Shown: one piece after another, positions 1 to 42,748 of the stretch
Position numbering within the stretch: the stretch's first letter is position 1
Layout of the letters: each line of letters starts with the position of its first letter
Origin: Bugula neritina
Lineage: Eukaryota > Animalia > Bryozoa
Length of the DNA stretch: 64,000 nt
NCBI GenBank assembly: GCA_964035545.1
Contig: OZ037766.1
Coordinates: 372,001 to 436,000 of the forward strand
Direction: 5' to 3'
The notes under the pieces: generated by a model
Databases searched by the model: none
Told to the model about the DNA's origin: nothing
What the model saw: only the letters and a program-made list of their open reading frames with translations
Made by a program: the position numbers and the translations under genes

Positions 1-16
1 TAGGGTCAGGGGCGAG

Positions 17-3000
17 ATGGAATCATACGAAGGGGAATACGGCACCCTAGCTGACGGGTCGTGCCTTCCCTTCTATGGTATAATTGAGCTGACGGGGCGA
101 GTCCGTGATCAAACGATCCAAGAGACGTTCATCGTCAGTCAGCTCAAGGAGGACGCCATCCTCGGGATGCCATTCCTAAAACGGCACGGATGTCACATGG
201 ATTTTAGCAAATCTGCGATGATGATGTCCGGGCGAGAACTCGCCTGCGTCGACAAGTTCGGCCGCCCTTTAGTGGGAGGTGTGCAAGTGGTACGCAACCG
301 TACCATACCAGGCCGCTCCCGGGCTACCATTCACTGCAGGGTGAACAATAGCCGGATCTCTGGACTCGGGGTAGTTGAAGGCGCGCACGAAAAGATCCAA
401 CTTGCCAGCAGTCTGAATCAGCTGACTGAGCAAGGGGAGATCTTAGTGCAGTGCGTCAACCCCTTTACCGAGTCTGTCAAGCTTCCGGCTGGGTCGATGC
501 TGGGCCGTTTTCACTCTGTTCAGGAGGAAGACATAGGCCCGTCGCTGGGTAATGCGACAGAGGCACGTCCTCAGTGCCCTACTCAAGGGCGAGGGGCAGT
601 CCCAGCACATCTCCGGGAGTTGTATGACACAGCCTGTAGCGGCTGCGCGAGTAACAAAGAATGCCAAGTTATGGCGAAGTCACTACGCAACTACGGTGAT
701 GTGTTCAGCAGCGGAGAGCATGACATGGGACTGACTGGAATTGTCAGACACGAAATACCGCTGACTGCAGGGACAGTCCCTGTCCGGCAGCCCACACGCA
801 GGCTGGGGCCGGAGAAAGAGAAGGAGGTTAGCCGACAAGTACGGGATCTTCTGGACCGGGGACTGATAGAGCCCGCCCATAGTGCGTGGAGCTCGCCAGT
901 CGTACTGGTCCGGAAGAAAGACGGCAGTTGGCGGTTCTGTGTGGATTACCGCAAGCTCAATAGCGTAACCATACAGGACGCCTACCCTCTACCTCGTATT
1001 GACGAGTCATTGGACGCCCTAGCTGGCAGCAAGTACTTCAGTACGTTAGACTTGCTAAGCGGCTATTGGCAAGTTCCTCTGAGTCCCGACGCCCAGGAGA
1101 AAGCGGCGTTTATCACACGGGACGGTTTGTGGAAGTGGAAGGTGCTGCCTTTCGGGTTGACCTCCGCCCCAGCCACCTTCCAGAGGCTGATGGAGCAAGT
1201 CCTCAGCGGGCTCTATTGGAAGACACTGCTGATCTACCTCGATGATGTCATCGTGATCTCCCCAGACTTCGAGGCGCATGTCAGTCGTCTGCAGGAGGTC
1301 TTTGAGAGACTCCGAGGTGCCGGTCTTAAGCTCAAACCTTCTAAGTGCGCTCTATTGCAGCCAGAGGTTAAGTACCTGGGGCACGTTGTCGGTCGAAACG
1401 GCGTGGCAACGGATCCCGAGAAGGTACGGGCAATAGAAGACTGGGTCACCCCCCAAGATTTGACTGGACTCCGGGCTTTCTTGGGGCTGGTAGGGTATTA
1501 CAGGCAATACATACCAGACTTTGCGGGCATAGCACAGCCGTTAAACCGGCTCACCGCAAAGGGAGTGACGTGGCAGTGGACCCCAGTCGAACAAGGAGCG
1601 TTCGACCGCCTCAAGGGCTGCCTACTAACGGCGCCCATCTTGGCCTACCCAGACCCCACTCTGGAGTACATCCTCGACACTGACGCCAGTGACCAAAATG
1701 TTGGCGCTGTGCTTTCACAAGTGCAGGAAGGCCGAGAGGTAGTAGTAGCCTACTACAGCAAGTCTCTCTCACCCACTGAACGGAACTACTGCACTACCCG
1801 CAAGGAGCTGCTGGCAGTAATCAAGTCAGTGAAGCACTTCAGACCATACCTATATGGCAGGAAGTTCCGGCTGCGTACGGATCATGCCTCGCTGATCTGG
1901 TTGTGCAAGAGAGCAGAGCCCTCTAGTCAGGTCGCCCGGTGGCTCGAAATCCTAGCTGAATTCTCATACCGGATCGAACATCGACCGGGCAAGAGACACA
2001 GCAATGCGGATGGGTTGAGTCGCCGACCTGACAGAGGTTGCAAACAGTGTCTCAACATCGAGAGGAGAGATGGAGGTCCCCCGCGATGCGAGTTGGAGAC
2101 GCTGGCTCACCACGGAGCACCGTTTGACTGGGACCAGGGTCAACTCAGGCAGGGAGTTGACGAGTCCCCGGAGGATGTACAAAACCTCCGCGCCAACCCT
2201 GTACTGGCCGGTAATGTTCGAGAGCTGAAGAAGCTCCAAGAAGAGCTGCCTGGAGTCGTGGCAGACATATATCGGGCCAAAAGGGAAGGGCGACGACCCA
2301 GCGAGGAACGCATACGACAGGGATGCGCCGAGTTCCGGCTATACTGTCAGCGTTGGGACTCGCTGCGGATCGGGCAGGATGGGTTACTAACCATCTCTCT
2401 AGCCGCCAGTGGCAGACACCCGGAGAGGAAGAGGGTAGTCTGCCCCACGGCCATCCGCCGTGAGTTGATTTGGGATACTCACAAACAGGCCCACGCAGGG
2501 GTCAAGAGAGTGATATCCAAATTACGACTCCGGTGGTATTGGCCTCAAATGGAGCGTGACGTCCGACTCAGAGTCAAACAGTGTGAGATTTGCCAGGCCA
2601 GTAAGCATAGCCGCCCCCTTGGTGAAGCAGGACGGCGGAGGCTATATGCTGGTAGGCCCTGGCAAGTAGTCGCTGTAGACCTGGTCGGACCCCTGCCCCT
2701 GACCCCCAGAGGCAATAATTGGATCCTAGTACTAACCGACCACTTTACTAGGTGGGCGGATGCTCTGGCTATCCCAGACGCGCCAGCTGAAACTTTTTCA
2801 GATTACACTCGACCCGCAACAACCAGGGTACGGGATAGAGCACTTCCCGCTCCGCATCCGGAGGAGTATGCTAGTGGTGACCGGCCCGAGCCACTGCGCC
2901 GCCGTTGGCGGTGGGTGTCTCCAGAAACAGAGGAAGAAATAGAAACGGCCTGGGGGTCCAGAGGACGGACGAGATGCCAGATTTGTGGCGAAGAATGTGC

Positions 3001-3583
3001 CTCTCACCGCTCCTTGAAGCTACACGTCAACGCCCATCTCTTACTAACATTCTGCCCCTGCGGATACAATGATGTCTACCCCTACCCCGTCACCAGACAT
3101 CGAGCGGCGGGCTGTTTCCCTGGAGAGAACTACGTGGTCGACGCTAAGCTCTACCCGGAATTCCTCACCCTGATACGACCCCTAGTAAAGAAGGCAATGC
3201 TGTTAGCCGTCCTGACCTCGGGTTTCCAACGTGTACTAGACAATGCCAGGCAGCAATCCCCATTAGTATCTGACCGTCCTCAGATTACGTACACCCCCGA
3301 AGAGTTTGCCTACCCAGAAGAAGGAGAGATCTCCCCTATCCCGACGAAGAGACGAACCAGGTCTCCCAGTCCCCCTTTACGCCGCAGACGGACACCGTCC
3401 CCAGACCCAGTTCGCCTGGCCACAGTAGAGGAACGCCTCCTCCGACTACAAGAAGAATTCACCCAGTTGGCACCGGATCTACTTAATACTACAACAGGGC
3501 TCTTCCAACTAAAAGGATCCGTATGCCGGATGAAACGGAAACTGCGTACATGCCAAGCCAAGCACCGGCGTGCACAACAATGA
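17..3583 (+). CDS. pol: Pol (PR C-term, RT, RNase H, truncated integrase) fused in frame by deletion to the ORF3 zinc-finger protein
   Basis: 1188-aa ORF. It matches copy-2 pol up to ...WADALAIPDA, then switches at about 2787 to ETFSDYTRP..., which is ORF3 of copy 2 (41067 onward). Confidence 0.9.
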   Translation: MESYEGEYGTLADGSCLPFYGIIELTGRVRDQTIQETFIVSQLKEDAILGMPFLKRHGCHMDFSKSAMMMSGRELACVDKFGRPLVGGVQVVRNRTIPGRSRATIHCRVNNSRISGLGVVEGAHEKIQLASSLNQLTEQGEILVQCVNPFTESVKLPAGSMLGRFHSVQEEDIGPSLGNATEARPQCPTQGRGAVPAHLRELYDTACSGCASNKECQVMAKSLRNYGDVFSSGEHDMGLTGIVRHEIPLTAGTVPVRQPTRRLGPEKEKEVSRQVRDLLDRGLIEPAHSAWSSPVVLVRKKDGSWRFCVDYRKLNSVTIQDAYPLPRIDESLDALAGSKYFSTLDLLSGYWQVPLSPDAQEKAAFITRDGLWKWKVLPFGLTSAPATFQRLMEQVLSGLYWKTLLIYLDDVIVISPDFEAHVSRLQEVFERLRGAGLKLKPSKCALLQPEVKYLGHVVGRNGVATDPEKVRAIEDWVTPQDLTGLRAFLGLVGYYRQYIPDFAGIAQPLNRLTAKGVTWQWTPVEQGAFDRLKGCLLTAPILAYPDPTLEYILDTDASDQNVGAVLSQVQEGREVVVAYYSKSLSPTERNYCTTRKELLAVIKSVKHFRPYLYGRKFRLRTDHASLIWLCKRAEPSSQVARWLEILAEFSYRIEHRPGKRHSNADGLSRRPDRGCKQCLNIERRDGGPPRCELETLAHHGAPFDWDQGQLRQGVDESPEDVQNLRANPVLAGNVRELKKLQEELPGVVADIYRAKREGRRPSEERIRQGCAEFRLYCQRWDSLRIGQDGLLTISLAASGRHPERKRVVCPTAIRRELIWDTHKQAHAGVKRVISKLRLRWYWPQMERDVRLRVKQCEICQASKHSRPLGEAGRRRLYAGRPWQVVAVDLVGPLPLTPRGNNWILVLTDHFTRWADALAIPDAPAETFSDYTRPATTRVRDRALPAPHPEEYASGDRPEPLRRRWRWVSPETEEEIETAWGSRGRTRCQICGEECASHRSLKLHVNAHLLLTFCPCGYNDVYPYPVTRHRAAGCFPGENYVVDAKLYPEFLTLIRPLVKKAMLLAVLTSGFQRVLDNARQQSPLVSDRPQITYTPEEFAYPEEGEISPIPTKRRTRSPSPPLRRRRTPSPDPVRLATVEERLLRLQEEFTQLAPDLLNTTTGLFQLKGSVCRMKRKLRTCQAKHRRAQQ

Positions 3584-3871
3584 CTCTGGTTCTGCTACCC
3601 GGAATAATCCGCAACCTCGTCCTCCTGGGGGAAACCAGGATATCGTGTAAATGCTTGACTGCTCGACAGGCCTATTCCTTGTCTAATACCACAGCTAGCC
3701 GGTATTCCTCCTCTATAGCTGGTCAATTGTATGTAACTGGCTGTTATAATGACTCTGTCTGTTATTACGTATCTTTATCTGTGTTATGTATTATTTTGGT
3801 CTACTGATGTATGTGGTTAGTAATGAACGTTTTTTTATATCAGAAAGAGGGCTTTCTGCTGGTGGGGGCGG

Positions 3872-4178
3872 TGTGGTGGCTCGTGGAGCTACCAGCAGCA
3901 CAACATGTGGGGTCGCGTAATTGACCCGGAACAATTGATAGCCAATTAGCGTGTTTAATAGTTAGCAGCAAGTATAGTTTCCCCGCTGCTAACTCAGTCG
4001 AAGTTAGAGTGCTGAATAGACTAGATGTGTAACTTGTCAGATGTATTTGTATCGTTTTTGTAATGTATTGTTGTGTGTAAAATATATACTCGTTCACTCG
4101 ACTTAACCTGGTGTAGTTCTATCGAAGTAATTAGACTCTCTGGATAGCATATCAACCCTAAATCTGAAAATCATAACA
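3872..4178 (+). repeat. 3' LTR of Gypsy family A copy 1
   Basis: Starts TGTGGTGG directly after the PPT and ends ...ATAACA; similar to 35011-35314; followed by GTAT. Confidence 0.93.
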
Positions 4179-4653
4179 GTATTAAAATGAGAGACAGATG
4201 GAATTGTGGGATACATTTAACTGTAGTATCTAAAGCTAGCTAATTACTAGTAATTGTTAATTTTTGTTGTTAATTCTTACCAGCTGTTTTGTTACAAAAG
4301 TTGAATAAATTGTTACAAATTAATACAACCATCTCATTCACATCTAAATTCTTTTTGATATAAGCAGCTAGAAGTAGTTCTATAAAGCAATCATTATTTA
4401 TCAATCAGCTGTATCATTCTAGCTACTCAGACTGAGCTATTTGAGCATTCTAACTAAACTATTTAAATAACCAGTTGAGAGTGAAAGTTACTTAACGATA
4501 ATCATCACATGCATATTTAATATATTCATAAAACATAAAATCATAGATAAAGTTTTTGGTATAAAAACACAAAATATGGAATAATTCTTTTATAAACAAA
4601 TAGAAATATTAGCATTGAGTATGTAAAAATCAGCATATATGATTAAACACACA

Positions 4654-4747
4654 AGTCAGCAGGTGAGTGAAGGTATAAGCCAGCAGGTGAGTGAAGGTGT
4701 GAGTCAGCAGGTGAGTGAAGGTATAAGTTAGCAGGTGAGTGAAGGTA
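4654..4747. repeat. 24-bp minisatellite (GTCAGCAGGTGAGTGAAGGTATAA-like), about 4 units
   Basis: Direct tandem copies are visible. Confidence 0.85.
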
Positions 4748-5173
4748 CACATCCTCATTGGCAGCCAGTGTACTTCCTACAGATACTGATCCACGTCCTG
4801 GCAGCATGTTTTATCTGTAGTCTCTGTAGAACTGAATGCTGGGCTATAACCTGATCTGATAGGTCCTTATTGTGTATGCTCATGAAATCTGTCAACTATG
4901 TAGATAGGAACTGATAACTAGCTGCCACCCTAAATCTCAACTTAGTTGCTTCCAATAGCAGAACTGCAGGTTCACAGGTTTCAGGCAGGCTGTGGCCGTA
5001 GCAGCAGGCTGTGGCCGTAACAGCAGGCTGTGGCCGTAGCAGCAGGCTGAGAGTTTCTTTCTGCACCATTTTGTGCTTAACAAATACTCTCAAAAACTCA
5101 TTTAGGCGCCAGCCTCTATCCCTTGAGGACACCTAATGAGAAGAGCAGGACTAAAGACGGTGATAAAAAAGAT

Positions 5174-25200: not shown

Positions 25201-28200
25201 GAGCTTTTCTATAAAGGTGCTCAATATAGCTAAGATAGCTTAGCAAACTAGCGCTAATTTCACTACAGAGTAGTTATGTAGGTCACAATAGTTATGTAGG
25301 TCACAGCAGTTATGTAGGTTACAGTAGATATGTAGGTCACAGTAGATATGTAGGCCACAGTAGATATGTAGGTCACAGTAGCTATGTAGGTCACAGTAGT
25401 TATGTAGGCCACAGTAGATATGTAGGTCACAGTAGTAATGTAGGTCACAGTAGCTATGTAAGTCACAGTAGTTATGTAGGCCACAGTAGATATGTAGGTC
25501 ACAGTAGTTATGTAGGTCACATTGCACAATGTAGGTCAAAGTAACGGCACACAACACTCACATGTCCCATAAATTGTCCAATTAGGATGCTCCTTACAAA
25601 GCCTTCTGACTATACCATAACCAATACCTTGATTTGCTCCAGTGACCTGATTATAGAATAGTAAGATGCTGAGTATATACTAGTATGTAATGTGTTCTTA
25701 TGTATGTTGAGTCAGTGTATAGGTTATGTTCACTTTGTGAGTCTCACAGCATGAACTCAACACCAGGACAACCACAGAAGTTGCTAAAGACGGGATTCAG
25801 GATTCTGTATAGAGTAGTGGTTCCCAATCTTTTTCATACTATTCCCCCTTTCATAAATGTTTACTATTAATTTCCCCCCTTTTGAAAAGCGAAAAGATTC
25901 TTGGCTGATATGATGCAAATATGTATTTTGTTACATTATATTAGCTATATCATCTTTATTACTATGCTATGGAACACAGAGCAGTTCAATTATGTTATGA
26001 ATGCAGTTGATGCTTTAGTGAAAGTTTGTTTTAAGCCTGGCTCTGTGTTTGACCAGGCCCATCTTAAGTCACTCTGCAGGTTAAGGCAGTGTCTCTTCAC
26101 TTTGAATTAATGAGAATTATGCCTCACATGGATAGGTGGTGTTGGATGGCACCAACGTTCTGCTTTGTCAGCTATATGTGGGTTGCTTGTTGAAAATGTA
26201 AAAATGGAACAGGTAATAATGGTACAAATGAATAAGTAGGTAGAAATGGCGCACTGATGTTAAATTTTCCCAACCCCCAACCCTTGAACCCCAAATCTCC
26301 ACCTCTTAACTCAAACCCCCAAACTCCAGAACTCAAAATACAAATTCAAAATCCTCACCTCAAACCCCATCTCCAAACTCCAAACCTCTACCCTAATATT
26401 GCAAATGTGCCAGTTTTACCTGCTTTTCCATTAGTGCCATTATTATCTGTGCCATTTCTACTGGACACCACCCACAACACATCAATTGGAACAGATTTCA
26501 AATTACCCTTCTTTGCTATTTTGTGAACCAACTCAACGAAATCCTCTTGTATTTCCTCTAAAATCTTTTTAACAAAGCGATGCAATGGCTTCACATGTCA
26601 AGTTAAGAATTCAAAGCTCTTTCTTTTTGAGAGGTAGCTAAGAGAAATACCATTAAAACTCCATTAAGAGTTCTGAGAGGTGCCCTGAAGTTCTTTTTGA
26701 AAAAGGATCTGGAACAGGTGGTGTCTGGTAAAAATGGTATAAGTAATAATAGGACAAATGGAAAATTAGATAAACATGGCACATTTTCAATATCAGGGTT
26801 GAAGATTTGCATGGGTTGGAGGTTAGGACGCATCTGGGTTCAAGATGGGAGTTTGGAGGTTTGGGAAAAATTTTAACACTAGTGTGCGTTTTTTACCTGT
26901 CATATTTGCCTAAAATTGAAACAGATTTTTCTCTTATAAAAGTTCACTGAGTGTGGGGAAAAACACCATATTTTGATAGAGACGCCACCATTTTAGTGCA
27001 ACTTTAAAAACATTGATGCTGCTATGAAAAGCAATGAAATAATGATTGCACTCCTGCATTTTTAGGTTCAGAATATTTAGTGTAGCAAATATATTTACTA
27101 GGTATGTAGTATACAGTTCATAGAGATTGACTTGCATGGCTGCTAAAAGTTTCACCTCCATTCAAAGTAGCACAGAAGGCAGTTAAGATAGAGTAATTAA
27201 TAAACACATTCATGTAGAAGTAAACTGAGATTGCATTAGTCCATGATTGTAAACCACACACAGGCAGGCTAGTTAGCCTGTTAAGTTAATCTTCACAAGA
27301 ATGTTAACATTGTTTAGACTACTGCCCAAGTACTGACAACTTATTTTATATATGCAGCACACCTCTTTTTCCCTCTAGGTAGGTCTAGTGTGAAGATAAC
27401 ATTGACAGGTATCGACAGGTAATTCTAATACTAATGGTAATAGTAATAGTTATAGTAACAAAAACAATTGTCATAATGTAGTAAATTGTGTAACTACTAT
27501 GCGTGGGTTCCTAGCTTGTAATTATAGTCTATTTATCTACACCAATAAAGCATTTAAGTAAGAGTTTCCAAAGTTTATTTACTACTAATTATATAAAAGA
27601 TACAGCACGTACACAGGTTAGAGATTACATCTTCGCTTAGTTAACACGCTCTCTCCACTGCAAAACTACTACTAGCTGAGGGTTATCACGTGACGCACTC
27701 GGATAGGCTGAAGGAATACGGGGGACGCGCGTATTACGTCCTCACTACATCACCCCCCCCAGCAGAAAGCCCTACTTTCTGATAACACAGATACAATAAA
27801 TTCGAACATAAAATGTTATAAAACTAAAAAAAACCGAGAGCGTGTGGCACATAAAAGAAAAACATGGCTATGTACAGTAATAAGAAAACATATACATATA
27901 AAAAAATATAACAGTAAATACACAATGGCACCGGCGGGAGGCACTTATAAAGGAATAGTTTATAGAGGTAGAGCTGTATACTGGTAGGTTACTATACACT
28001 GTTACACTGAGTAATTGTTTGTGAGCACCGGCGTGAGAAGGGTCTGGAATGGGGCACCACCTGCTGTACCATCACGGATAGGGAGAGGAGGGACATCATC
28101 TTCAAGCACTTCCTTTCATTCGGGCTACAGAGGCAGAGAGGGCCCGGAGTTCTGATGCGGCGGCGGAGATTCTCGGTGTCAGTCTTTGCACCTCTTTCTC

Positions 28201-31200
28201 TAATTCTCGTATCTGCTCTTCTGCCTCGCCTAGATTCCGGGCAGGGGCAGAGTGTCGGTTGGGGGATGAAGATGGCCAACGCCGTTTACGAGAAGGCCTT
28301 GGGGAGACAGGGGGGGAGGGACGCCATCGCTGTGGTATATCAATGCGTCGTAACACGACTCTTGGTATAGTCGGGGCGGGGCACTGTGCGTGCGGGGGGT
28401 GAGGGACGGGATACGCGTGGTTTCCTATATCCGGGTGGTTTAGGGCAGGGTCCCTGTGTGATGGTCCTGGGTGCGGGGAATTCCTGACGCAGCCGTTCAT
28501 ATCGAGCTGGGTCTGATATGAACGGTCGGATGAGATTAAGGAATTGTGGAAAGGAGGGTTCGTCGACTTCGAACAGGTGTCCAACATGGCATCCCATAGT
28601 TCGCTGGTGACGGAGGATGTAGTCCCTGTGGTAACTATATTCACCACAGGGACAGAAGGTGGTGAAATAATGTTGGGGAATATGAACTCAAAGTCTTCGT
28701 GGAGTAGTGAAGTGAAGCTGGCATAAACGGCAGGTGAAGCATTGGTCGTCTCCCTTGTGCTCTCGTATCAGTGTTTCTGTATCTGGTGTAACCCAGCATG
28801 ACTGCTGTAAGAGTGCCTCCGGAAGAGTAGTGGGAACGGGTTCCTCGTTCCAAGCCATTTCTAGTGACGGCATGTCACCAGAGAGAGGAGAGAGAGCGGT
28901 ATCTAAAAGAGCAGAATTACTGTTAGATCGAGTATGATCTTTACACCATAATTCTGATGACAACCGACTGTTACTAGTCTGGGAGTCATACATCTTTTCA
29001 GATAGCACTCGAGGGACTGAGTCGTGTCGTGTAGACTGACAGAGAGACATAGTGTCAAGCTCCAGATCTAGTAGATCGTCGGCCATCTTTATGTTCTCGT
29101 CGCCTTTCACGTAGGACTCAGTCCCCAGTAGTTGTGATTCAATCAAGGCGATTAAATCAGAACTGACTGATGGTAGACTGGTTTCCATGACTGGAAATGT
29201 TAGCTCAGAGCAAGCTTACCTGAGAACCCGGTATTTGTAATCATACTCAGCGTTCAAGCTTGGATGTCCATGGATTGAGTTTGAATGCGTCTTCCCTTGA
29301 CAACGTCAGCGTACGAAAAGACTAGGCAGCGTGGTTGTTGCGCACGGCTGGAACTATTTGCCCCGGGCGTAGTAGTTTTGTTTACTACTCCGCCTTCGCA
29401 AAAGTTGAGATTTCCGTGGTGTTCACAACTCCCACGCTTTGTTGCCAGTCCTTCCGTACGGCGCCCAGCTAGACTTTCATAACTGCCGTTTGTAACACGG
29501 TCACATATGAAATCTTTAAGGTATGCTGGGGGTTGTCTAGTACGCTGTCCCCGTTCCAGGGGAGGTGACGTATCAGCTGGAGAGGGAGTTGTAGCTGTTG
29601 GTTGGGGCGGCGTACTCACTGGTGGGCTATTTTGCTCCACCTGTGGTGTTTCTGGCCCGCCGTTGGTGGTGGTGTTCCCCTCTCCGCTGTTGTCTCTAGA
29701 TGGAGCCCCTCCCACGGGGGGGTTTTGCACTTCCGGACGCGGATGCGGAACCGGAAGTGGTGGGGGTAGACTTGGTAATGGGGGCGGTGGGCGCACTCCC
29801 GTTGGTGGGAGTGGCGTCTCCTGCCTCACCAAGTCCTCTCCCCGCGGCACAACCACTTCGTATTCTGGCCCATGCCGTTGCTGCCCACGCGTTACTGTCT
29901 GCCTCCTGGGCTCCAACAACGGGGGGCTGCTCCTGCTGCTCCTGGGCTAGCCCAATACGGTTTCAAGCGGACTTCGTTCTGGACAGAGACCTGTCCAGAT
30001 CGCTCCAACTTGTACGTATGATTGCGCATAGCCTATACTACTACGTAGGGTCCCACAAACTTAGGCTGGAGCTTAGCCGCTTGTCCTCGACGCCTACGGT
30101 AGTTGACCATCCACACCCAGTCCCCAGTTTGATAGAGAGGTGGTTCCTGAGAGTCCTCTCGCCGTACCTGCCACTGCTTCGCCCGCAGTATTTCGTGTGC
30201 GGCCCTCAGGTCCTCTATCAATTTACTGGCATACTCGTGGATGGTATAGTCCTGCTCTGGGATGTGGTATGTGAGGTGGTCAGGCACTCGCGTCTCTCGA
30301 CCGAGCATCAGGAGGTTAGGGGTTTCCCCCGTACTGGTGTGTGGTGTACTACGGTAGGCCCGCATGACTTGCGGCAGTACCGTATCCCACTCCTCCTGAC
30401 CCCGGCCGAGGAGCAGACTGCGCAGTGCATCGCCCAACATGCGATTGTTGCGTTCCACCACCCCGTTGCCCTGAGGATGGTACGGGGTGGTCCTGCTTTG
30501 GTTTACTCCCCAGAGGCGGCAGAGGTCGCTCAACAGTTGGGACTGGAATTGAGCCCCCTGGTCCGAATGTATTTGCTCAGGTAGTCCAAGATAGCAGAAT
30601 ACATTTTGGTCCAGCACCCTGGCCACCGTGGGGGCGGACGCATCTGGAATAGCCAGGGCGTCCGCCCACCGTGTAAAGTGGTCGGTTAATACTAGGATCC
30701 AACTGTTTCCTCTGGGGGTGACGGGCATGGGTCCGACTAGGTCGATAGCTACCACCTGCCATGGCCTCCCAGCATATAGCCTACGCCGTCCCGCTTCACC
30801 AGGGAGACGGCCATGCTTGCTGGCCTGGCAGATTTCGCATTGTTTGACTCTACGCCGCACCTCACGCTCCATGCCGGGCCAGTACCACCGGAGTTGTAAC
30901 TTGGAGAGCACCCTGCTCACCCCGGCGTGGGCTTGCTTGTGGGTGTCCCATACTAACTCCCGGCGTATGGCGGCTGGGCAGATCACCCTCTTCCTGCCGT
31001 ACTGGTTGTTGTGAGCAGCCACTGTGATGGTCAGCAGACCATCTGGCCCGATCCGCAGGGAGTCCCAACGTTGGCAGTACGACCGTAACTCGGTGCATCC
31101 CTGCCGCAGTTGTTCTTCACTGGGTCGTCGCCCCTCCTTTTTGGCACGATATACGTCGGCTACCACTCCAGGGAGGTCCTCCTGGAGTCTTCGTAGCTCC

Positions 31201-34200: not shown

Positions 34201-37200
34201 CCTCGATTGTGGTCACTCCCTTGGCTTGTAACTGGTGGGAAGTCCAAAGAGTTGAGAGACTGTACAAAGGCTTCGAATGTGTAGTGCCGTCTGTGTGTTT
34301 CTGGCAGATCGCTATACGCGGTCCGTGCCAGTCTCTGCACCAGAGTGGCGTGGTCAGAGAGCGGTGTACATGTCTTGCGGAGTAATCCTCGCAGCCTGGA
34401 CTTGGCGACGGCAACGGGCATGCCAAAATGGGCCCGTAGTGTAGCAATGATCCCGTTTACGCTAGGCTTCCACCCGTCAGTGCCATCCGCAGTTTTGTAA
34501 GAGTTACTCTTGGCGGCCATCTTGTAATGGCTGCAGCTTCACGGAACTCTTGAACGAATTGTTCAATATCCTCGCGGCCTGTGAACACGGGAACCTCTAA
34601 TGTGTTCCTATATACCTCCTCTCCAGCTCCGAGAGGGCCTATAATAATGTTCTGCTCACCTCCTTCCATTGAAGTTACTCCCTCGTCCATGATGTTCTAA
34701 TACTTCTCATTGTTCTCATACAGTAGCTAGAAATCCCACCGCTGCCACCACTGTAGTAAATTGTGTAACTACTATGCGTGGGTTCCTAGCTTGTAATTAT
34801 AGTCTATTTATCTACACCAATAAAGCATTTAAGTAAGAGTTTCCAAAGTTTATTTACTACTAATTATATAAAAGATACAGCACGTACACAGGTTAGAGAT
34901 TACATCTTCGCTTAGTTAACACGCTCTCTCCACTGCAAAACTACTACTAGCTGAGGGTTATCACGTGACGCACTCGGATAGGCTGAAGGAATAGGGGGGG
35001 ACGCGCGTATTGTGGTGGTTCGTGGAACTACCAGCAGCACAACATGCAGGGTCGCGTAATTGACCCGGAACAATGGATAGCCAATTAGCGTAGTTGATAG
35101 TTAGCAGCAATTGTAGTTCCCGCTGCTAACTCAGTCGAAGCTAGAGTGTTAAATAGATTAGATGTGTAACTTGTTAGAAATAATGTATCGTGTTTTTATG
35201 ATGTATAGTTGTGTATAAAATATACTCGTTCACTCGACTTAGCCTGGTGCAGTTCTATACTAGATAAATAGACTCTCTGGATAGCATATCAACCCTAATC
35301 TGAAAATTATAACAGTGGTGGCAGCGGTGGGATAGTGCATCCAAGATGGAGACTGAAAATGCTGAAATTCAACCACCGGCAATCGAAGGTGAGCGTAGAG
35401 ACAATGCTGTAGAGACAATGCCTGTTAACCATGTAGTAGAAGAGCGAAGGGTTCCGCGGGAACTAGCTGAAGACCGCTACAGGTTAAAGGCGCCCACCTT
35501 CACGGGTGAAGAGGAGGTGGAACAATTTATTCAAGAGTTTAGCGACGTAATGGACGTCGCTCAGTGGCCCCCTAGGGTGGCCCTGCTGAAGCTTAGAATG
35601 GCATTGATGGACAAAGCCAAGCCCTATGGGCTGGGCGTAGACATTGATAATATCTTTGCTTCTCTGCGGGCCCGCTTTGGCCTCTCGGCTACAGATGCCA
35701 GGGCCCGATTACAGAGGTTGCGGCGTGATCCCCGCACCCCGCTGCGGGAGCATGCCGCCGCGGTCATGAAGCTGGCACAGATCGCGTACAGCGACTTGCC
35801 CCCAGTCAACCGCGAGAGGTACACCCTCGACGCTTTCATAGCATCTGTCGACGATCTGGGTCTCCACCACCAGTTTCTAGCTAGGGGAGTCACCACCGTT
35901 GAAGATGCTCTGACTGAGGGGGAAGCTTACCTCCTAGCTAACCAAATGCATAAAAGTCGCGGAAGCTCCCGCCAAGTGGAGATAGACCGCGCAGACACGG
36001 CCGCGGGACAAGGGGAGGAAACCCCCGCCGCGGCTGCCGTGTCCCAGTTGGCGACGGCATCAAAAGTCACTCAACTGACGGACATGCTAGCCAAGCTGAT
36101 AGCAACACTGACACCACAAAACCCAGTGAGTACCGCCCCTGAGCCCATGCGGCCATCGGCGCCGCCACAGGGAGAAACAGTCAGTTTTTGCTGGGAGTGC
36201 GGAAATCAAGGACATTTCCGCCGATATTGTCCCTTCCTAAATCAGGGGTTAAACTACCGCGGCCCGCAGATGTTCCCACCTTCCGCGGGCCGACGATGAA
36301 ACCTCTAGGGAAGAAGAAACGCAGGTCACCCAGACGGGTACCGCGTACTGGCAACCAACAGTGGCAACAGCCACGACGGACCAGCAAGGGGCTTCGCCCC
36401 GCGGCTGCCTTTTCTATGCCCCTTCACAACAGATTCACAGGGCTGCAAGTCCAAGAATCTGGATGGGAGCACACAAAGGTAGCTGAGGATCTAGCCTCGG
36501 CACCCCCGAGGCCTACCCATCACCGCCCCAAGAGACCTCCTTCGCGACCCAAAGCGAGGGAGGTACTCCCTGCGAGAGTAAGGCCTGAAGGGAGAGTTCA
36601 GGTGCAGCCCCATGGGAACAGCTATTTCTTGCCCGGTAAACTGGAAGGCAAAGCTGTTACTTTTCTCATTGATTCGGGCTGTACCACAAACCTCTTAAGC
36701 CGCCAACTCTTCGACACCCTCAGTGCTAGGGTCAGGGGCGAGATGGAAGCATACGAAGGGGAATACGGCACCCTAGCTGACGGGTCGTGCCTTCCCTTCT
36801 ATGGTATAATTGAGCTGACGGGACGAGTCCGCGATCAAACGATCCAAGAGACGTTCATCGTCAGTCAGCTCAAGGAGGATGCTATCCTCGGGATGCCGTT
36901 CCTTAAACGGCACGGATGTCACATAGATTTTAGCAGATCTGCAATGATGATGTCCGGGCGGGAACTCGCCTGCGTCGACAAGTTCGGCTGCCCTTTAGTG
37001 GGAGGTGTGCAAGTGGTACGCAACCGTACCATACCAGGCCGCTCCCGGGCTACCATTCACTGCAGGGTGAATAGTAGCCGGATCTCTGGACTCGGGGTGG
37101 TTGAAGGCGCGCACGAAAAGATCCAACTTGCCAGCAGTCTGAACCAGCTGACTGAGCAAGGGGAGATCTTAGTGCAGTGCGTCAACCCCTTTACCGAGCC

Positions 37201-40200
37201 TATCAAGCTCCCGGCTGGGTCGATGCTGGGCCGTTTTCACTCTGTTCAAGAGGGAGACGTAGGCCCGTCGCTGGGTGATGCGACAGAGGCACTCCCTCGA
37301 CACCCTATTCAGGGACGAGGGGCAGTCCCAACACATCTCCGGGAGTTATACGAGACGGCCAGTAACGGCTGCGCGAGTAACAGAGAGCGCCAGGCTATGG
37401 CCAAGTTACTACGCGACTACGGTGATGTGTTCAGCAGCGGAGAGCATGACGTGGGACTGACTGGAATTGTCAGACACGAAATACCGGAGAAAGAGAAGGA
37501 GGTTAGCCGACAAGTACGGGATCTTCTGGACCGGGGACTGATAGAGCCCGCCCATAGTGCGTGGAGCTCGCCAGTCGTACTGGTCCGGAAGAAAGACGGC
37601 AGTTGGCGGTTCTGTGTGGACTACCGCAAACTCAATAGCGTAACCATACAGGACGCCTACCCTCTACCTCGTATTGACGAGTCATTGGACGCCCTAGCCG
37701 GCAGCAAGTACTTCAGTACGTTAGACTTGCTAAGCGGCTATTGGCAGGTTCCTCTGAGTCCCGACGCCCAAGAGAAAGCGGCGTTTATCACACGGGACGG
37801 TTTGTGGAAGTGGAAGGTGCTGCCCTTCGGGTTAACCTCCGCCCCAGCCACCTTCCAGAGGCTGATGGAACAAGTCCTTAGCGGACTCCATTGGAAGACA
37901 CTGCTGGTCTACCTCGATGATGTCATCGTAATCTCTCCAGACTTCGAGACACATGTCAGTCGTCTGCAGGAGGTTTTCGAGAGACTCCGAGGTGCCGGTC
38001 TTAAGCTCAAACCTTCCAAGTGCGCTCTGTTGCAGCCGTAGGTCAAGTACCTGGGGCACGTTGTCGGTCGAAACGGCGTGGCAACGGATCCCGAAAAGGT
38101 ACGGGCAGTAGAAGACTGGGTCACCCCCCAAGACTTGACCGGACTCCGGGCTTTCTTGGGGCTGGTAGGGTATTACAGGCAATACATACCAGACTTTGCG
38201 GGCATAGCCCAGCCGTTAAACCGGCTTACCGCAAAGGGAGTGACGTGGCAGTGGACTCTAGTCGAACAAGAAGCGTTCGACCGCCTCAAGGGCTGCCTCC
38301 TAACGGCGCCCATCTTGGCCTACCCAGACCCCACTCTGGAGTACATCCTAGACACGGACGCCAGTGACCAGAATGTTGGCGCTGTGCTGTCGCAAGTGCA
38401 GGAAGGCCGAGAGGTAGTAGTAGCCTACTACAGCAAGTCTCTCTCTCCCGCTGAACGAAATTACTGCACTACCCGCAAGGAGCTGCTGGCAGTAATCAAG
38501 TCAGTGAAGCACTTCAGACCATACCTATATGGCAGGAAGTTCCGGCTGCGTACGGATCATGCCTCGCTGATCTGGTTGTGCAGGAGAGCAGAGCCCTCTA
38601 GTCAGGTCGCCCGGTGGCTCGAAATCCTAGCTGAATTCTCGTACCGGATCGAACACCGGCCGGGCAAGAGACACAGCAATGCGGATGGGTTGAGTCGCCG
38701 ACCTGAGGGAGGTTGCAAACAGTGTCTCAACATCGAGAGGAGGGATGGAGGTCCCCCACGATGCGAGTTGGAGACGCTGGCTCATCACGGAGCACCGTTT
38801 GACTGGGATCAAGGTCAACTCAGGCAAAGAGTTGATGAGTCCCCGGAGGATGTACAAAACCTCCGCGCCAACCCTGTACTGGCCGGTAATGTTCGAGAGC
38901 TGAAGAAGCTCCAAGAAGAGCTGCCTGGAGTCGTGGCAGACATCTACCGGGCCAAAAGGGAAGGGCGACGACCCAGCGAGGAACGCATAAGACAGGGATG
39001 CGCCGAGTTCCGGCTATACTGTCAGCGTTGGGACTCGCTGCGGATCGGGCAGGATGGATTGCTAACCATCTCTCTAGCTGCCAGCGGCAGACACCCGGAA
39101 AGGAAGAGGGTAGTCTGCCCCACAGCCATCCGCCGTGAGTTGATTTGGGATACTCACAAGCGGGCCCACGCAGGGGTCAAGCGAGTGATGTCCAAATTAC
39201 GACTCCGGTGGTATTGGCCACAGATGGAGCGTGACGTCCGGCTCAGAGTCAAACAGTGTGAGATCTGCCAGGCCAGTAAGCATAGCCGTCCCCCTGGTGA
39301 AGCAGGACGGCGGAGGCTATATGCTGGCAGGCCCTGGCAAGTAGTCGCTGTAGACCTGGTCGGACCCATGCCCCTGACCCCCAGAGGCAATAATTGGATC
39401 CTAGTACTAACCGACCACTTTACTAGGTGGGCGGATGCTCTGGCTATCCCAGATGCATCAGCCCCAACGGTGGCCAGGGCACTAGACCAACATGTATTCT
39501 GTTATTTTGGGCTCCCCGAACAGATACACTCTGATCAAGGCGCTCAATTCCAGTCTCAACTGATGAGCGACCTTTGCCACCTCTGGGGAGTAAATCAGAG
39601 CAGGACCACCCCCTACCACCCTCAAGGTAACGGGGTGGTGGAGCGCAACAACCGGATGCTAGGTGATGCACTCCGGAGTCTCCTCCTTGGACGAGGTCAA
39701 GAGGAATGGGATACGGTGTTGCCGCAAGTCATGCGTGCATACCGTAGCACCCCACACACCAGTACTGGTGAGACCCCAAACCTCTTGATGCTCGGGAGGG
39801 AGACTCGTGTCCCTGACCATCTCACCTATCACGTTCCAGAGCAGGATAACTCAGTCCATGAGTATGCCAGTGAACTAGTGGAACGGATGAAGGCCGCACA
39901 CGAGATACTGCGTCAACAGCAGTGGAAGGTGCGGCACGAAGATTCCGATGAACCACCCCTCTATCAAAGAAAAGATAAGGTGTGGATGGTCAATTACCGT
40001 AGGCGCCGCGGACAGGCTGATAAGCTGAAGCCTAAGTTCGTAGGCCCCTACGTGGTCGTCGAGGCTATGCCCAATCATACGTACAAGATTGAGCGCTCAG
40101 GACAGGTGTCTATCCAGAATGAGTCTCGCTTGAAACCGTATTGGGCTAGCCCCGGCGGAGTGGGAGAAGCCTCCCCGTTGTTAGAGCCCAGGAGGCAGAC

Positions 40201-42748
40201 AACAACGCGCGGGCGACGGCGGCATGGACCTGAATACGAAGTGGTCATACCGCGGGAAGAAAACTTGGTGAGAGAGGAGCGGCAGCTTTTGTCAACAGAA
40301 GCGTGTCCGCCACCGCCGAGTCTAATTCCATCACTTCCAGAAACCGAGCCGGTTCCGGAAGTGCAAACCCCCACGGAGGGAGGGCTCCATCCGGAGAACA
40401 AGAAGAGGTGACCGGGGACGGTGAAGTAGAGACGCCATTAGAGGCCCCTACTAACGAACCGGCAAGCGTGTCACCCCCCCTAGAAAGGGGACAGCGTACG
40501 AGGCAACCCCCCGCATACTTGAAAGACTTCGTATGTGACTGCGTTAAAAGCGGCACACATGAAAGTCTAGGGGAAAACCGTACGAGAAAAGAATCGAGCA
40601 AATGTGGGAGTTGTCAACACCACGGAAATATCAACTTTTGTATCGGCGGAAATAGAAACAAAATTCATCCGCCGGGTGCACAAAGTCTTAATCACGCACC
40701 CCAACCACGTTGCTCGATCTTTTCATACGCTGATGCAGTCAAGAGTAGACGTGTTTCTAAGCAGTAGTTCAAACCATTTCACATATTCAGTATGTCTTAC
40801 GACAACAGATCGTGGGGTGAGTTAACTATATCTTAATACGAAACTAGATTGCATCGCTCAGCTCTGACTCACTGAGTCAATCGAGCTGGAGATAGGTTAG
40901 TGAAATACCGTAGTAAGAACTCAGTTTGACTTAGAGATTTTTATAATCTCATTGCAATACGGTTCTATCTGACTATTCACTATCATTAATCTCTACGAGG
41001 TAACTGAATTAGGAGTTGCCAAGCTGTTCAAGCTGACAACACAGCAGTGTACTGTACTAACACTGTTGAAACTTTTTCAGATTACACTCGACCCGCTACA
41101 ACCAGGGTACGGGATAGAACACTTCCCGCTCCGTATCCGGAGGACTATGCTAGTGGTGACCGGCCTGAGCCACTACGCCGCCGTTGGCGGTGGGTGTCTC
41201 CACAAACCGAAGAAGAAATAGAAACAGCCTGGGGGTCCAGAGGACGGACGAGATGCCAGATCTGTGGTGAAGATTGCGCCTCTCACCGCTCCCTTAAACT
41301 ACACGTCAATGCTCATCTCCTACTGACCTTCTGCCCCTGCGGGTACAATGATGTGTATCCCTACCCCGTCACCAGACACAGAGCGGCGGGCTGTTTCCCT
41401 GGAGAAAACTATGTGGTCGACGCTAAGCTATACCCGGAGTTCCTCACGTATATACGACCTCTGGTAAAGAAGGCCATGCTATTAGCCGTTCTATCCTCGG
41501 GGTTCCAACGTGTGTTAGACAACGCCCGCCAACAATCCCCGTTGGTGTCTGACCGCCCTCAAATTACATACACCCCCGAGGAAACTACATATCCAGAAGA
41601 AGGAGAGATCTCCCCTACCCCGGCGAAGAGACGGACCAGGTCCCCCAGTCCACCCTTACGCCGCAGACGGACACCGTCCCCAGACCCAGTACGACTAGCT
41701 ACAGTAGAAGAACGCCTCCTACGATTACAAGAAGAGTTCACCCAGCTGGCGCCAGATCTACTTAACACTACCACAGGACTCTTCCAGCTGAAGGGATCCG
41801 TATGCCGTATGAAACGGAAACTGCGTACATGCCAAGCCAAGCACCGGCGTGCCCAACAAGGACTCTAGTATGCTACCCAGAATACTCCACATTTGGTGAG
41901 GAACCAAAATCGTGCAAATGCTTAACTGCTAGACAGGTTATTCCTTGTCTAATACCACAGCTAGCTAGTATTCCTCGTCTATCTACAGCTGGCCAATTGT
42001 ATGCAACGGATCGTTATAACGACTCTGTCTATTATTATGTCTCTTCCTGTATATTATGTATTATTTTTGTCCACTGATGTATGCAATTACTATTGAATGT
42101 TTTTTTTATATATATATCAGAAAGATGGCTTTCTGCTGGTGGGGGCGGTGTGGTGGTTCGTGGAACTACCAGCAGCACAACATGCAGGGTCGCGTAATTG
42201 ACCCGGAACAATGGATAGCCAATTAGCGTAGTTGATAGTTAGCAGCAATTGTAGTTCCCGCTGCTAACTCAGTCGAAGCTAGAGTGTGAAATAGATTAGA
42301 TGTGTAACTTGTTAGAAATAATGTATCGTGTTTTTATGATGTATAGTTGTGTATAAAATATACTCGTTCACTCGACTTAGCCTGGTGCAGTTCTATACTA
42401 GATAAATAGACTCTCTGGATAGCATATCAACCCTAATCTGAAAATTATAACAGTATTACGTCCTCACTACAATAAGATGATAATACTAATACTATTAGCA
42501 ATACTATTACTATTAGTATTAGTACTACGTCTACTACTAGTACTACTATGAGTATGTCTATTACTATTACTATTAGTATTAGTATTACTATTAGTACTAC
42601 TACTAGTATTACTATTACTATTAGTATTAGTATTAGTATTAGTATTAGTATTAGTATTAGTAATACTTATACTTTGACTTAAACTTTGAAATTAAACAAT
42701 ATGAATATGAGTATAATGGAAAATACAGACCAGTGCAACTTTTGCCAT
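22292..42748 (-). CDS. Carbonyl reductase 1-like SDR, copy 3 (exons 2-8 at 22292 to about 25655; exon 1 at 42748-42731); catalytic Lys replaced by Asn, possible pseudogene
   Basis: Same exon set; YSVSN instead of YSVSK (codon 22999-22997); intron 1 holds the nested LTR elements and the hAT remnant. Confidence 0.8.
24872..25267. mobile_element. Probable solo LTR (396 bp) inserted in the 18-bp VNTR
   Basis: Termini TGTAGTGAA...TTCACTACA form a perfect 9-bp inverted repeat; flanks GAGGA/GAGTA; absent from the paralogous introns; ends resemble family B LTR ends. Confidence 0.65.
25816..27230 (-). mobile_element. hAT (Charlie/Buster-like) transposon remnant with an internal foldback/MITE-like insert
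   Basis: TAGTGGTTCCCAATCTTTT terminus. Minus-strand peptides YLVNIFATLNILNLKMQ...FPTL and CLNLQSDLRWAWSNTEP resemble the Buster-type transposase C-terminal half. Imperfect inverted repeat at about 26250-26470 / 26715-26890. Confidence 0.65.
27477..27749 (-). repeat. 3' LTR of family B (273 bp)
   Basis: TGTAGT...ACTACA; nearly identical to 34752-35010 + 42457-42471. Confidence 0.96.
28102..29188 (-). pseudogene. Family B ORF3: acidic N-terminus, C2H2 and CxC-H-C fingers, basic Ser/Pro region, coiled coil (one stop, one frameshift)
   Basis: CRLC-x12-H-x3-H, FCPCG...RH...GC and ...EEQIRELEKE...SVARMK align with family A ORF3; TGA at 28690-28688; frameshift near 28380. Confidence 0.85.
29254..33962 (-). 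pseudogene. pol: Family B pol (PR LLDSGC, RT YLDD, RNase H, integrase with GPY) with premature stops
   Basis: ORF pieces 33962-33414, 33332-31437, 31217-30033 and 29919-29254 are collinear with family A pol. Confidence 0.93.
33959..34690 (-). pseudogene. gag: Family B gag, frameshifted
   Basis: PVFTGREDIEQFVQEF...WPPRV...KLRMAL and LRAHFG...AYSDLP match family A gag. Confidence 0.88.
34733..34750 (-). other. Primer-binding site (tRNA-Leu type) of family B
   Basis: TGGTGGCAGCGGTGGGAT, 1 nt inside the 5' LTR boundary; complementary to the 3' end of eukaryotic tRNA-Leu (...AUCCCACCGCUGCCACCA). Confidence 0.85.
35316..35333 (+). other. Primer-binding site (tRNA-Leu type) of family A
   Basis: TGGTGGCAGCGGTGGGAT, identical to the family B PBS. 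Confidence 0.85.
35346..36299 (+). CDS. gag: Gag with CCHC zinc knuckle
   Basis: 317 aa directly after the PBS; CWECGNQGHFRRYC knuckle. Confidence 0.93.
   Translation: METENAEIQPPAIEGERRDNAVETMPVNHVVEERRVPRELAEDRYRLKAPTFTGEEEVEQFIQEFSDVMDVAQWPPRVALLKLRMALMDKAKPYGLGVDIDNIFASLRARFGLSATDARARLQRLRRDPRTPLREHAAAVMKLAQIAYSDLPPVNRERYTLDAFIASVDDLGLHHQFLARGVTTVEDALTEGEAYLLANQMHKSRGSSRQVEIDRADTAAGQGEETPAAAAVSQLATASKVTQLTDMLAKLIATLTPQNPVSTAPEPMRPSAPPQGETVSFCWECGNQGHFRRYCPFLNQGLNYRGPQMFPPSAGRR
36248..36292 (+). promoter_or_regulatory. Putative -1 ribosomal frameshift signal (gag-pol)
   Basis: G_TTA_AAC in the gag frame, 5-nt spacer, then an 8-bp GC stem CGGCCCGC/GCGGGCCG; pol is in the -1 frame and overlaps gag. 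Confidence 0.7.
36251..40767 (+). pseudogene. pol: Family A copy 2 pol (PR-RT-RH-IN) with 51-bp deletion, TAG stop and tail frameshift
   Basis: LIDSGC, YLDD, HHCC/DDE integrase, GPY. HEIP^EKEKE deletion at about 37486 relative to copy 1; stop at 38039-38041; frame change near 40385. Confidence 0.92.
41081..41868 (+). CDS. ORF3: zinc-finger / RS-rich / coiled-coil protein, predicted second exon of a spliced gag-leader mRNA
   Basis: Open frame with CQIC-x12-H-x3-H, FCPCG...H...C, RRTRSPSPPLRRRRTPSP and a heptad region; no ATG near its start; preceded by TACTAAC...TTTTTCAG. Confidence 0.85.

Follow-up and report, generated by a model that had tools for sequence, protein, structure and literature searches.

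The question raised by this locus is how an LTR retrotransposon expresses a third open reading frame that lacks a start codon of its own. The window, by which we refer to the whole 64-kb stretch of Bugula neritina DNA that was analysed, consists of AT-rich, repeat-rich sequence holding three GC-rich Ty3/gypsy elements, one of which, termed A2, carries this frame (ORF3) downstream of gag and pol. As stated in the original prediction, ORF3 has no usable start, since its first in-frame ATG is located only at 41476, at residue 157 of the stop-to-stop frame and after the zinc fingers described below. It had been proposed that the missing start is supplied by a singly spliced mRNA joining the leader of gag to ORF3, and this proposal is now supported by a naturally joined relative (P0023), by selection acting ahead of the first ATG, by conserved Glu-Gly-Glu (E-G-E) columns in related Gags and by an equivalent donor in a second family. 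We thus consider the splice in A2 to be very probable.

The element is assigned by its structure to the Ty3/gypsy LTR retrotransposons, as it contains terminal direct repeats, a target-site duplication, a primer-binding site and a pol gene in the order PR-RT-RH-IN. Its LTRs are 304 bp each with TG...CA ends, the element is flanked on both sides by the target-site duplication GTAT, and it is a young member of the Gypsy type. Its features and those of its surroundings are as follows.

35011-42452, + strand: element A2, the Ty3/gypsy LTR retrotransposon under study
35011..35314, + strand: 5' LTR of A2, identical to the 3' LTR at 303 of 304 positions
35316..35333, + strand: primer-binding site of A2, upstream of the splice donor and hence retained in spliced RNA
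35346..36299, + strand: gag of A2, 317 residues with one CCHC knuckle, mostly within the predicted intron
36143..40411, + strand: pol of A2, PR-RT-RH-IN, in frame -1 relative to gag
42129-42148, + strand: G-rich tract of A2, preceding the 3' LTR
42149-42452, + strand: 3' LTR of A2
42471 to 27477, - strand: family B element, with an ATAA target duplication and near-identical LTRs

The primer-binding site, which we take to be of the tRNA-Leu type, comprises an 18-mer that is also found directly after the LTR of family B. A TATA-like box is located at 35214 and the gag ATG at 35346 is the first ATG downstream of it. The domain evidence for gag consists of a weak zf-CCHC match (E 0.14) and a nucleocapsid match (E 0.008), and pol is broken by a stop at 38039-38041 and by a 51-nt in-frame deletion near 37486. 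The overlap of both genes (36245-36299) contains the heptamer GTTAAAC, presumably a motif of the -1 frameshift type, followed by a GC-rich stretch, which together constitute a candidate frameshift site, and in the same interval the TGA of gag and an ATG of the pol frame overlap as ATGA. A2 is nested in the 5' LTR of family B, head to head with this element, and the last 15 nt of the interrupted LTR are found beyond A2 at 42457-42471. The third element, A1, occupies 1-4180 and is an incomplete sister copy of A2 with 86-94% identity. A region following the integrase is 75% identical between A2 (40470-40751) and family B (29288-29569), although their ORF3 and gag sequences do not align; this region is possibly a Cys/His-containing tail of pol or a cis element, which might act as ORF3 response element. 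The surrounding DNA at 6000-27000 and 43000-64000 holds multiple copies of an AT-rich, long interspersed repeat, in which minisatellites with units of 59, 22, 26, 18 and 12 nt are found, and between 61600 and 64000 a 19-nt unit is arrayed in tandem.

Selection on the part of ORF3 preceding its first ATG is reflected in the comparison of both copies of family A. Within the 131 codons ahead of this ATG, A1 and A2 differ with a pN of 0.028 and a pS of 0.304, corresponding to a dN/dS of 0.073 (Fisher p=1.7e-13), which compares to a value of 0.072 for pol and to 1.6 and 4.1 for the other two frames of the ORF3 region. Ahead of its first ATG, ORF3 is thus subject to purifying selection, with the 32 codons directly following the acceptor showing no significant selection when taken alone (dN/dS 0.37, p=0.35; A1 vs A2). 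Since the three frames of the segment between 40701 and 41082 contain 15, 6 and 5 stops, read-through from pol into ORF3 of A2 is excluded.

The predicted splice sites, whose coordinates we have confirmed, together with the exons that they define and the corresponding site in A1, are listed below.

35346..35388, + strand: coding exon 1, 43 nt from the ATG onward (14 codons plus one nucleotide), encoding an acidic leader common to Gag and the spliced product
35389..35394, + strand: 5' splice donor GTGAGC in phase 1, the sole AG|GTRAG of the element
41055..41061, + strand: branch-point-like TACTAAC
41062..41080, + strand: AG-free stretch with a T tract and the CAG acceptor, ACTGTTGAAACTTTTTCAG, ending at 41080
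41081..41868, + strand: exon 2, constituting ORF3, with 261 codons following the split codon
2788..3583, + strand: acceptor of copy A1 (G at 2801) and its intact ORF3

The donor GAAG|GTGAGC follows position 35388 and is preceded by 43 coding nucleotides, and the GT-AG sites are compatible in phase. Removal of an intron of 5,692 nt joins the gag leader through a split Asp codon to ORF3, whose stop-to-stop frame extends from 41008 to 41868 and includes position 41083, as had been predicted. Of the five G|GTRAG motifs in the 7.4-kb element, this donor alone reads AG|GTRAG, and in shuffled sequences such a donor in phase 1 was obtained within the first 26 gag codons with P=0.003. In equivalent shuffles, the probability of an in-phase acceptor in the gap ahead of ORF3 was 0.019 for any YTRAY branch and 0.00016 for TACTAAC, the criteria having in both cases been chosen post hoc. 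The original prediction had emphasised a perfect branch point, and although TACTAAC is present at the described position, it occurs three times in A2 and our acceptor heuristic finds six candidates, five of them inside pol and the one at 41080 as the sole candidate outside, so that the branch point alone is weak evidence. The last 14 nt of the acceptor are identical in A1, where a deletion at 2787/2788 has removed the branch point and joined the truncated integrase in frame to ORF3. This deletion begins in the middle of the integrase and stops 14 nt short of the acceptor AG, its ends do not carry GT and AG, and it generates an open pol-ORF3 frame of 1,193 codons.

A product of the kind expected from the splice is found in P0023, a protein of a sister subfamily known at the protein level, in which a Gag leader is followed by ORF3 with the switch at the predicted codon. 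Its residues 1-14 are identical at all 14 positions to the Gag P0241, which is the best among the 120 Gag matches listed, and at 13 of 14 positions to eight further Gags of this list. Directly after the leader, P0023 continues with D-H-T-R, which corresponds to the start of ORF3 in its relatives, at a place where Gags mostly contain G-E. This protein is a single case, and the junction is resolved only to the codon. It originates from a single JGI contig of 5,320 bp, which exceeds the length of the expected spliced RNA and may thus be an integrated copy of such an RNA. No second leader fusion was detected upon a short-query blastp comparison of 189 ORF3-like proteins with the 120 listed Gags, where the sole other match relates residues 2-16 of P0071 to an internal part of P0285, and a protein search with the first 45 residues of P0023 has retrieved only P0023 itself.

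The residues encoded at the donor are conserved in a broader set of Gags. From 130 matches, 120 of which are listed, 76 reach at least 20 residues upstream of the anchor, and after omission of six that begin after the donor, 70 N-termini were aligned. In the three columns encoded by the donor, Glu is found in 58 of 69, Gly in 62 of 70 and Glu in all 70 of these listed N-termini, compared to 33-47% conservation in the four preceding and 39-61% in the six following columns. Five Gags contain Ser in place of Gly, which is compatible with retention of the GT, and the E-G-E columns are kept despite leaders that vary between about 2 and 15 residues. These figures describe related Gags at the protein level, where the same residues could also be kept for protein reasons. 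On the acceptor side, 21 of 72 ORF3 matches reach the junction motif, the remaining 51, which either do not extend to it or do not match it, having been left out, and all 21 contain Asp or Gly at the split codon. In the 20 unfused relatives, the preceding residue is Ser (18) or Leu (2), both compatible with YAG, and one of these proteins, P0001, is a 100% match to the ORF3 of the window. In 13 of these 20 proteins a Met is annotated two residues ahead of the acceptor codon, and in many a Met is present some 14 codons downstream of it. Owing to the proximity of these Met residues, the respective subfamilies may not require a splice.

A comparable arrangement, with the same donor in the same phase, is found in family B, for which blastn gives no alignment to A2 in gag and ORF3.

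34654..34690, - strand: gag leader of family B, 31 nt from the ATG at 34690, with the donor GGAG|GTGAGC in phase 1
28102..29215, - strand: ORF3 homologue of family B, broken by a stop and frameshifts (E 8e-28 and 8e-10; 34% identity)

Its candidate acceptor, a CAG ending at 29191 in matching phase, is located 2 nt before an in-frame ATG of its own (29188) and is weaker than that of A2, as it fails the acceptor heuristic and its CTAAC is close to the AG. A second AG|GTAAG of family B at 29219 (- strand), 28 nt upstream of the ORF3 acceptor, looks like a recursive-splice motif, although it lies too close to bound an intron.

With respect to the protein, the composition of ORF3 is hydrophilic and basic, with 43 Lys and Arg compared to 28 Asp and Glu, and its sequence contains three recognisable parts.

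41164..41538, + strand: compact double zinc-finger domain, a C2H2 finger (C31, C34, H47, H51) followed by C57-x-C59...H72...C77/H, with conserved flanks
41626..41682, + strand: basic Arg/Ser/Pro patch, recognised from sequence
41704..41862, + strand: C-terminal long helix, a predicted coiled coil (residues 208-260, 53 residues, pLDDT 74-94)

Whereas the model of the full-length protein is poor (pLDDT 61), an AlphaFold model of the segment 41164-41538, which was used instead, describes a single domain with a pLDDT of 96 and a pTM of 0.87. A profile search has identified 120 representatives of this domain at E<=0.001, and in a 76-row alignment selected from ORF3 and the profile matches, the candidate metal ligands C31, C34, H47, H51, C57, C59 and H72 are each kept in 71-76 rows, whereas 58 rows contain C77. 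The ligands of the pattern C-x2-C-x12-H-x3-H, each present in 73-75 of 76 rows, define a C2H2 zinc finger, and the profile retrieves C2H2 fingers from the PDB (E 4e-6), whereas the ORF3 of the window on its own remains below the Pfam cut-off. The nearest folds are DNA-binding fingers. Foldseek searches with the ORF3 models have returned nothing at E<=0.001 in PDB or BFVD, a VIA fold search found nothing at Z>=5 (best Z 3.9 over 57 residues) and the matches in the ESM Atlas are all below 0.9, which does not show that the predicted domain is a new fold. The basic patch is a candidate region for nuclear localisation, nucleic-acid binding or phosphorylation, and in a crude heptad scan the best window was located at most 70 residues from the C-terminus in 16 of 18 picked proteins.

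The same domain is found in proteins annotated as host genes of bryozoans, namely in Watersipora subatra XP_067940963/XP_067940964, where it occurs in two copies, in XP_067944745 of the same species and in Bugula neritina KAF6040922/KAF6040923; all named homologues of ORF3 are from Watersipora or Bugula. In B. neritina, the domain is carried by P0329 and P0330, whose genes have the consecutive locus tags EB796_000764 and EB796_000763. These bryozoan proteins share with ORF3 the double-finger domain and in some cases a C-terminal coiled coil, yet they differ from it in their annotation as uncharacterised host proteins and in that some contain the domain twice. They may be host genes or unrecognised elements, and are possible donors of the ORF3 domain or domesticated copies. 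In P0333, RNase H, integrase and, after them, the domain are all read in the pol frame, an arrangement that links the domain to a distant gypsy family. When metagenome and viral contigs were searched for loci, the ORF3 alignment gave no match in either; the integrase as query gave none in viral contigs and two loci in metagenomes. One of them (L001) is a distant gypsy element of 35% integrase identity with a zinc-finger-like frame after pol (4542-4967), which was left aside since the ORF3 profile does not match this frame and the AG nearest to it is in phase 2, and the other (L002) stops short inside the integrase.

In the mechanism that we propose, the LTR would drive a single transcript with two fates. 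In its unspliced form, this transcript would serve as genome and as mRNA for gag and pol, and after removal of 5,692 nt it would code for a protein of about 276 residues beginning with the Gag leader. Because gag and pol are contained in an intron whose splice sites are strong, some of the RNA would have to escape splicing and nuclear retention. ORF3 is a candidate for a positive-feedback factor, whose fingers and basic patch would bind nucleic acid and whose helix would oligomerise. As the spliced RNA would retain the primer site and both ends, it could also be copied back into an LTR-ORF3-LTR mini-element of 1,750 bp.

A related organisation is known from complex retroviruses, where Rev, Rex and Rem are made from spliced RNA and contain a basic region and an oligomerising helix, all of which would have counterparts in ORF3, with similarity in sequence not being expected. 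Rev is also described in work on the Caenorhabditis elegans Ty3/gypsy element Cer1, whose CERV is itself a spliced protein sharing its N-terminus with Gag and is required for the export of unspliced genomic RNA (PMC10309623). The element A2 resembles this system in its layout, with export being known for CERV and predicted here. According to the same text, CERV comprises 517 residues encoded by 5 exons, features a C4 loop, an M domain that forms a ring and a domain resembling G proteins, and shows no obvious homology outside nematodes (PMC10309623). By this description it is set apart from ORF3, with its 2 exons, about 276 residues and its C2H2+C2HC/H double finger, whose model contains no region of the size of a G domain. 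By analogy with these systems, we regard it as quite likely that ORF3 is a nuclear, nucleic-acid-binding regulator of A2, and the combined reading of expression by splicing and of a protein acting in the nucleus on the RNA of its own element, as described for CERV and Rev, as likely. A role specifically in RNA export or splicing control is predicted more tentatively, at a probability somewhat short of even, since an element with gag and pol in a strong intron faces the same problem as Cer1 and since the parts of ORF3 fit.

The same splice could also produce a protein of different function. If ORF3 were a DNA-binding transactivator of the LTR or an anti-silencing factor of the Tas or Tax type, with an activation region to which the acidic Gag leader would contribute, it would be in line with its best sequence and fold matches, which are the DNA-binding C2H2 proteins SALL3, HIC2 and Kaiso, and with its basic finger helix, where R42 is found in 48 and an Arg at position 45 in 53 of 76 rows. 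The basic patch and the coiled coil resemble those of dimeric transcription factors, and the domain is present in proteins annotated as bryozoan genes. However, the matches do not extend beyond the fingers (about 50-57 residues, with Z not exceeding 3.9), the second of these is atypical in its CxC and C2HC/H arrangement, and both are packed into one domain, unlike in a Kruppel array. We thus view this function as possible although somewhat unlikely. A decidedly lower probability is attributed to ORF3 as a module for integration targeting or chromatin tethering, which would act in the manner of the chromodomain of chromoviruses either in trans or fused to the integrase. Such an arrangement is reflected in P0333, where the domain is in frame with RNase H and integrase, and the insertion of A2 into the LTR of family B might be taken as sign of targeting, but a single nested insertion shows none. 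Moreover, families A and B separate ORF3 from pol by stops and use a fusion to the Gag leader instead, and the fusion to pol in A1 results from a deletion that has removed most of the integrase core.

That ORF3 would be expressed without the splice, from a non-AUG start, an internal promoter or another exon, with P0023 originating from a chance deletion in DNA, is very improbable in light of the same evidence that favours the splice. In this case, P0023 would have had to switch simultaneously at the two predicted codons, the element has no other donor of this type, the residues encoded at the donor are conserved, and family A contains no in-frame ATG before 41476. For such expression speak the Met residues found near the acceptor in some relatives, the occurrence of internal deletions, of which the one in A1 ends 14 nt before the acceptor AG, and the fact that no junction read was found for A2. 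The RNA run X1 (share 0.19) provides 21 short and sparse contigs on A2, which leave the donor and the region 40960-41200 uncovered, a gap that carries no weight as evidence. In run X2, which may be the source of the window itself, 64 short contigs cover 40960-41200 with no variants at 41027-41095 and nine at 41096-41166, a comparison of low power; there is no loose end at the acceptor, and among 15 listed of 100 joints none is located at the splice sites.

The remaining comparison concerns env, to which the original prediction had likened ORF3. In errantiviruses such as gypsy and Kuruka, env is a third ORF after pol, whose subgenomic mRNA is generated by splicing at a conserved acceptor (PMC13669377). 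In the family of A2, the donor inside gag is conserved too, whereas ORF3 is a zinc-finger protein without signal peptide or transmembrane segment. Accessory frames other than env are described for the MDG1 group, where sORF2 follows pol in some Lepidoptera and encodes a small transmembrane fusogen-like protein (PMC11952523), whereas ORF3 is soluble. The analogy thus stands for position and expression route and does not extend to the protein, for which CERV is the closer precedent. That ORF3 would be an env or infectivity protein akin to that of errantiviruses or to sORF2 can be dismissed despite its env position and env-like splice, since it is hydrophilic and basic, its hydropathy over 19 residues reaches at most 1.24 and averages -0.74 in the leader, a hydropathy scan detects neither signal peptide nor transmembrane anchor, and it contains a single N-glycosylation sequon and conserved zinc ligands. 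The matches listed in Pfam and fold searches are zinc fingers, with no env family among them.

Collectively, our study provides evidence for the splicing of ORF3 in this window, which is its new contribution. LTR retrotransposons that lack env are usually treated as simple gag-pol elements, and CERV is one tested case of a spliced regulatory protein in such elements. A literature search, whose coverage is thin for subscription journals and repeat databases, found no paper describing the ORF3 gene. The domain of ORF3, which in A2 remains below the Pfam cut-off and which is shared with uncharacterised bryozoan proteins, is a candidate for gene capture or domestication. In its widest and rather doubtful form, our proposal would imply that a lophotrochozoan gypsy lineage has independently evolved a switch resembling that of complex retroviruses, where a spliced protein licenses the export of the genome and where LTR-ORF3-LTR mini-elements disseminate the regulator and may be the origin of the domain in bryozoan host genes. 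The family of A2 thus constitutes a second, apparently unrelated candidate for a spliced regulator with exact splice coordinates, which together with a natural spliced product and a modelled domain make the repeated emergence of Rev-like control testable.
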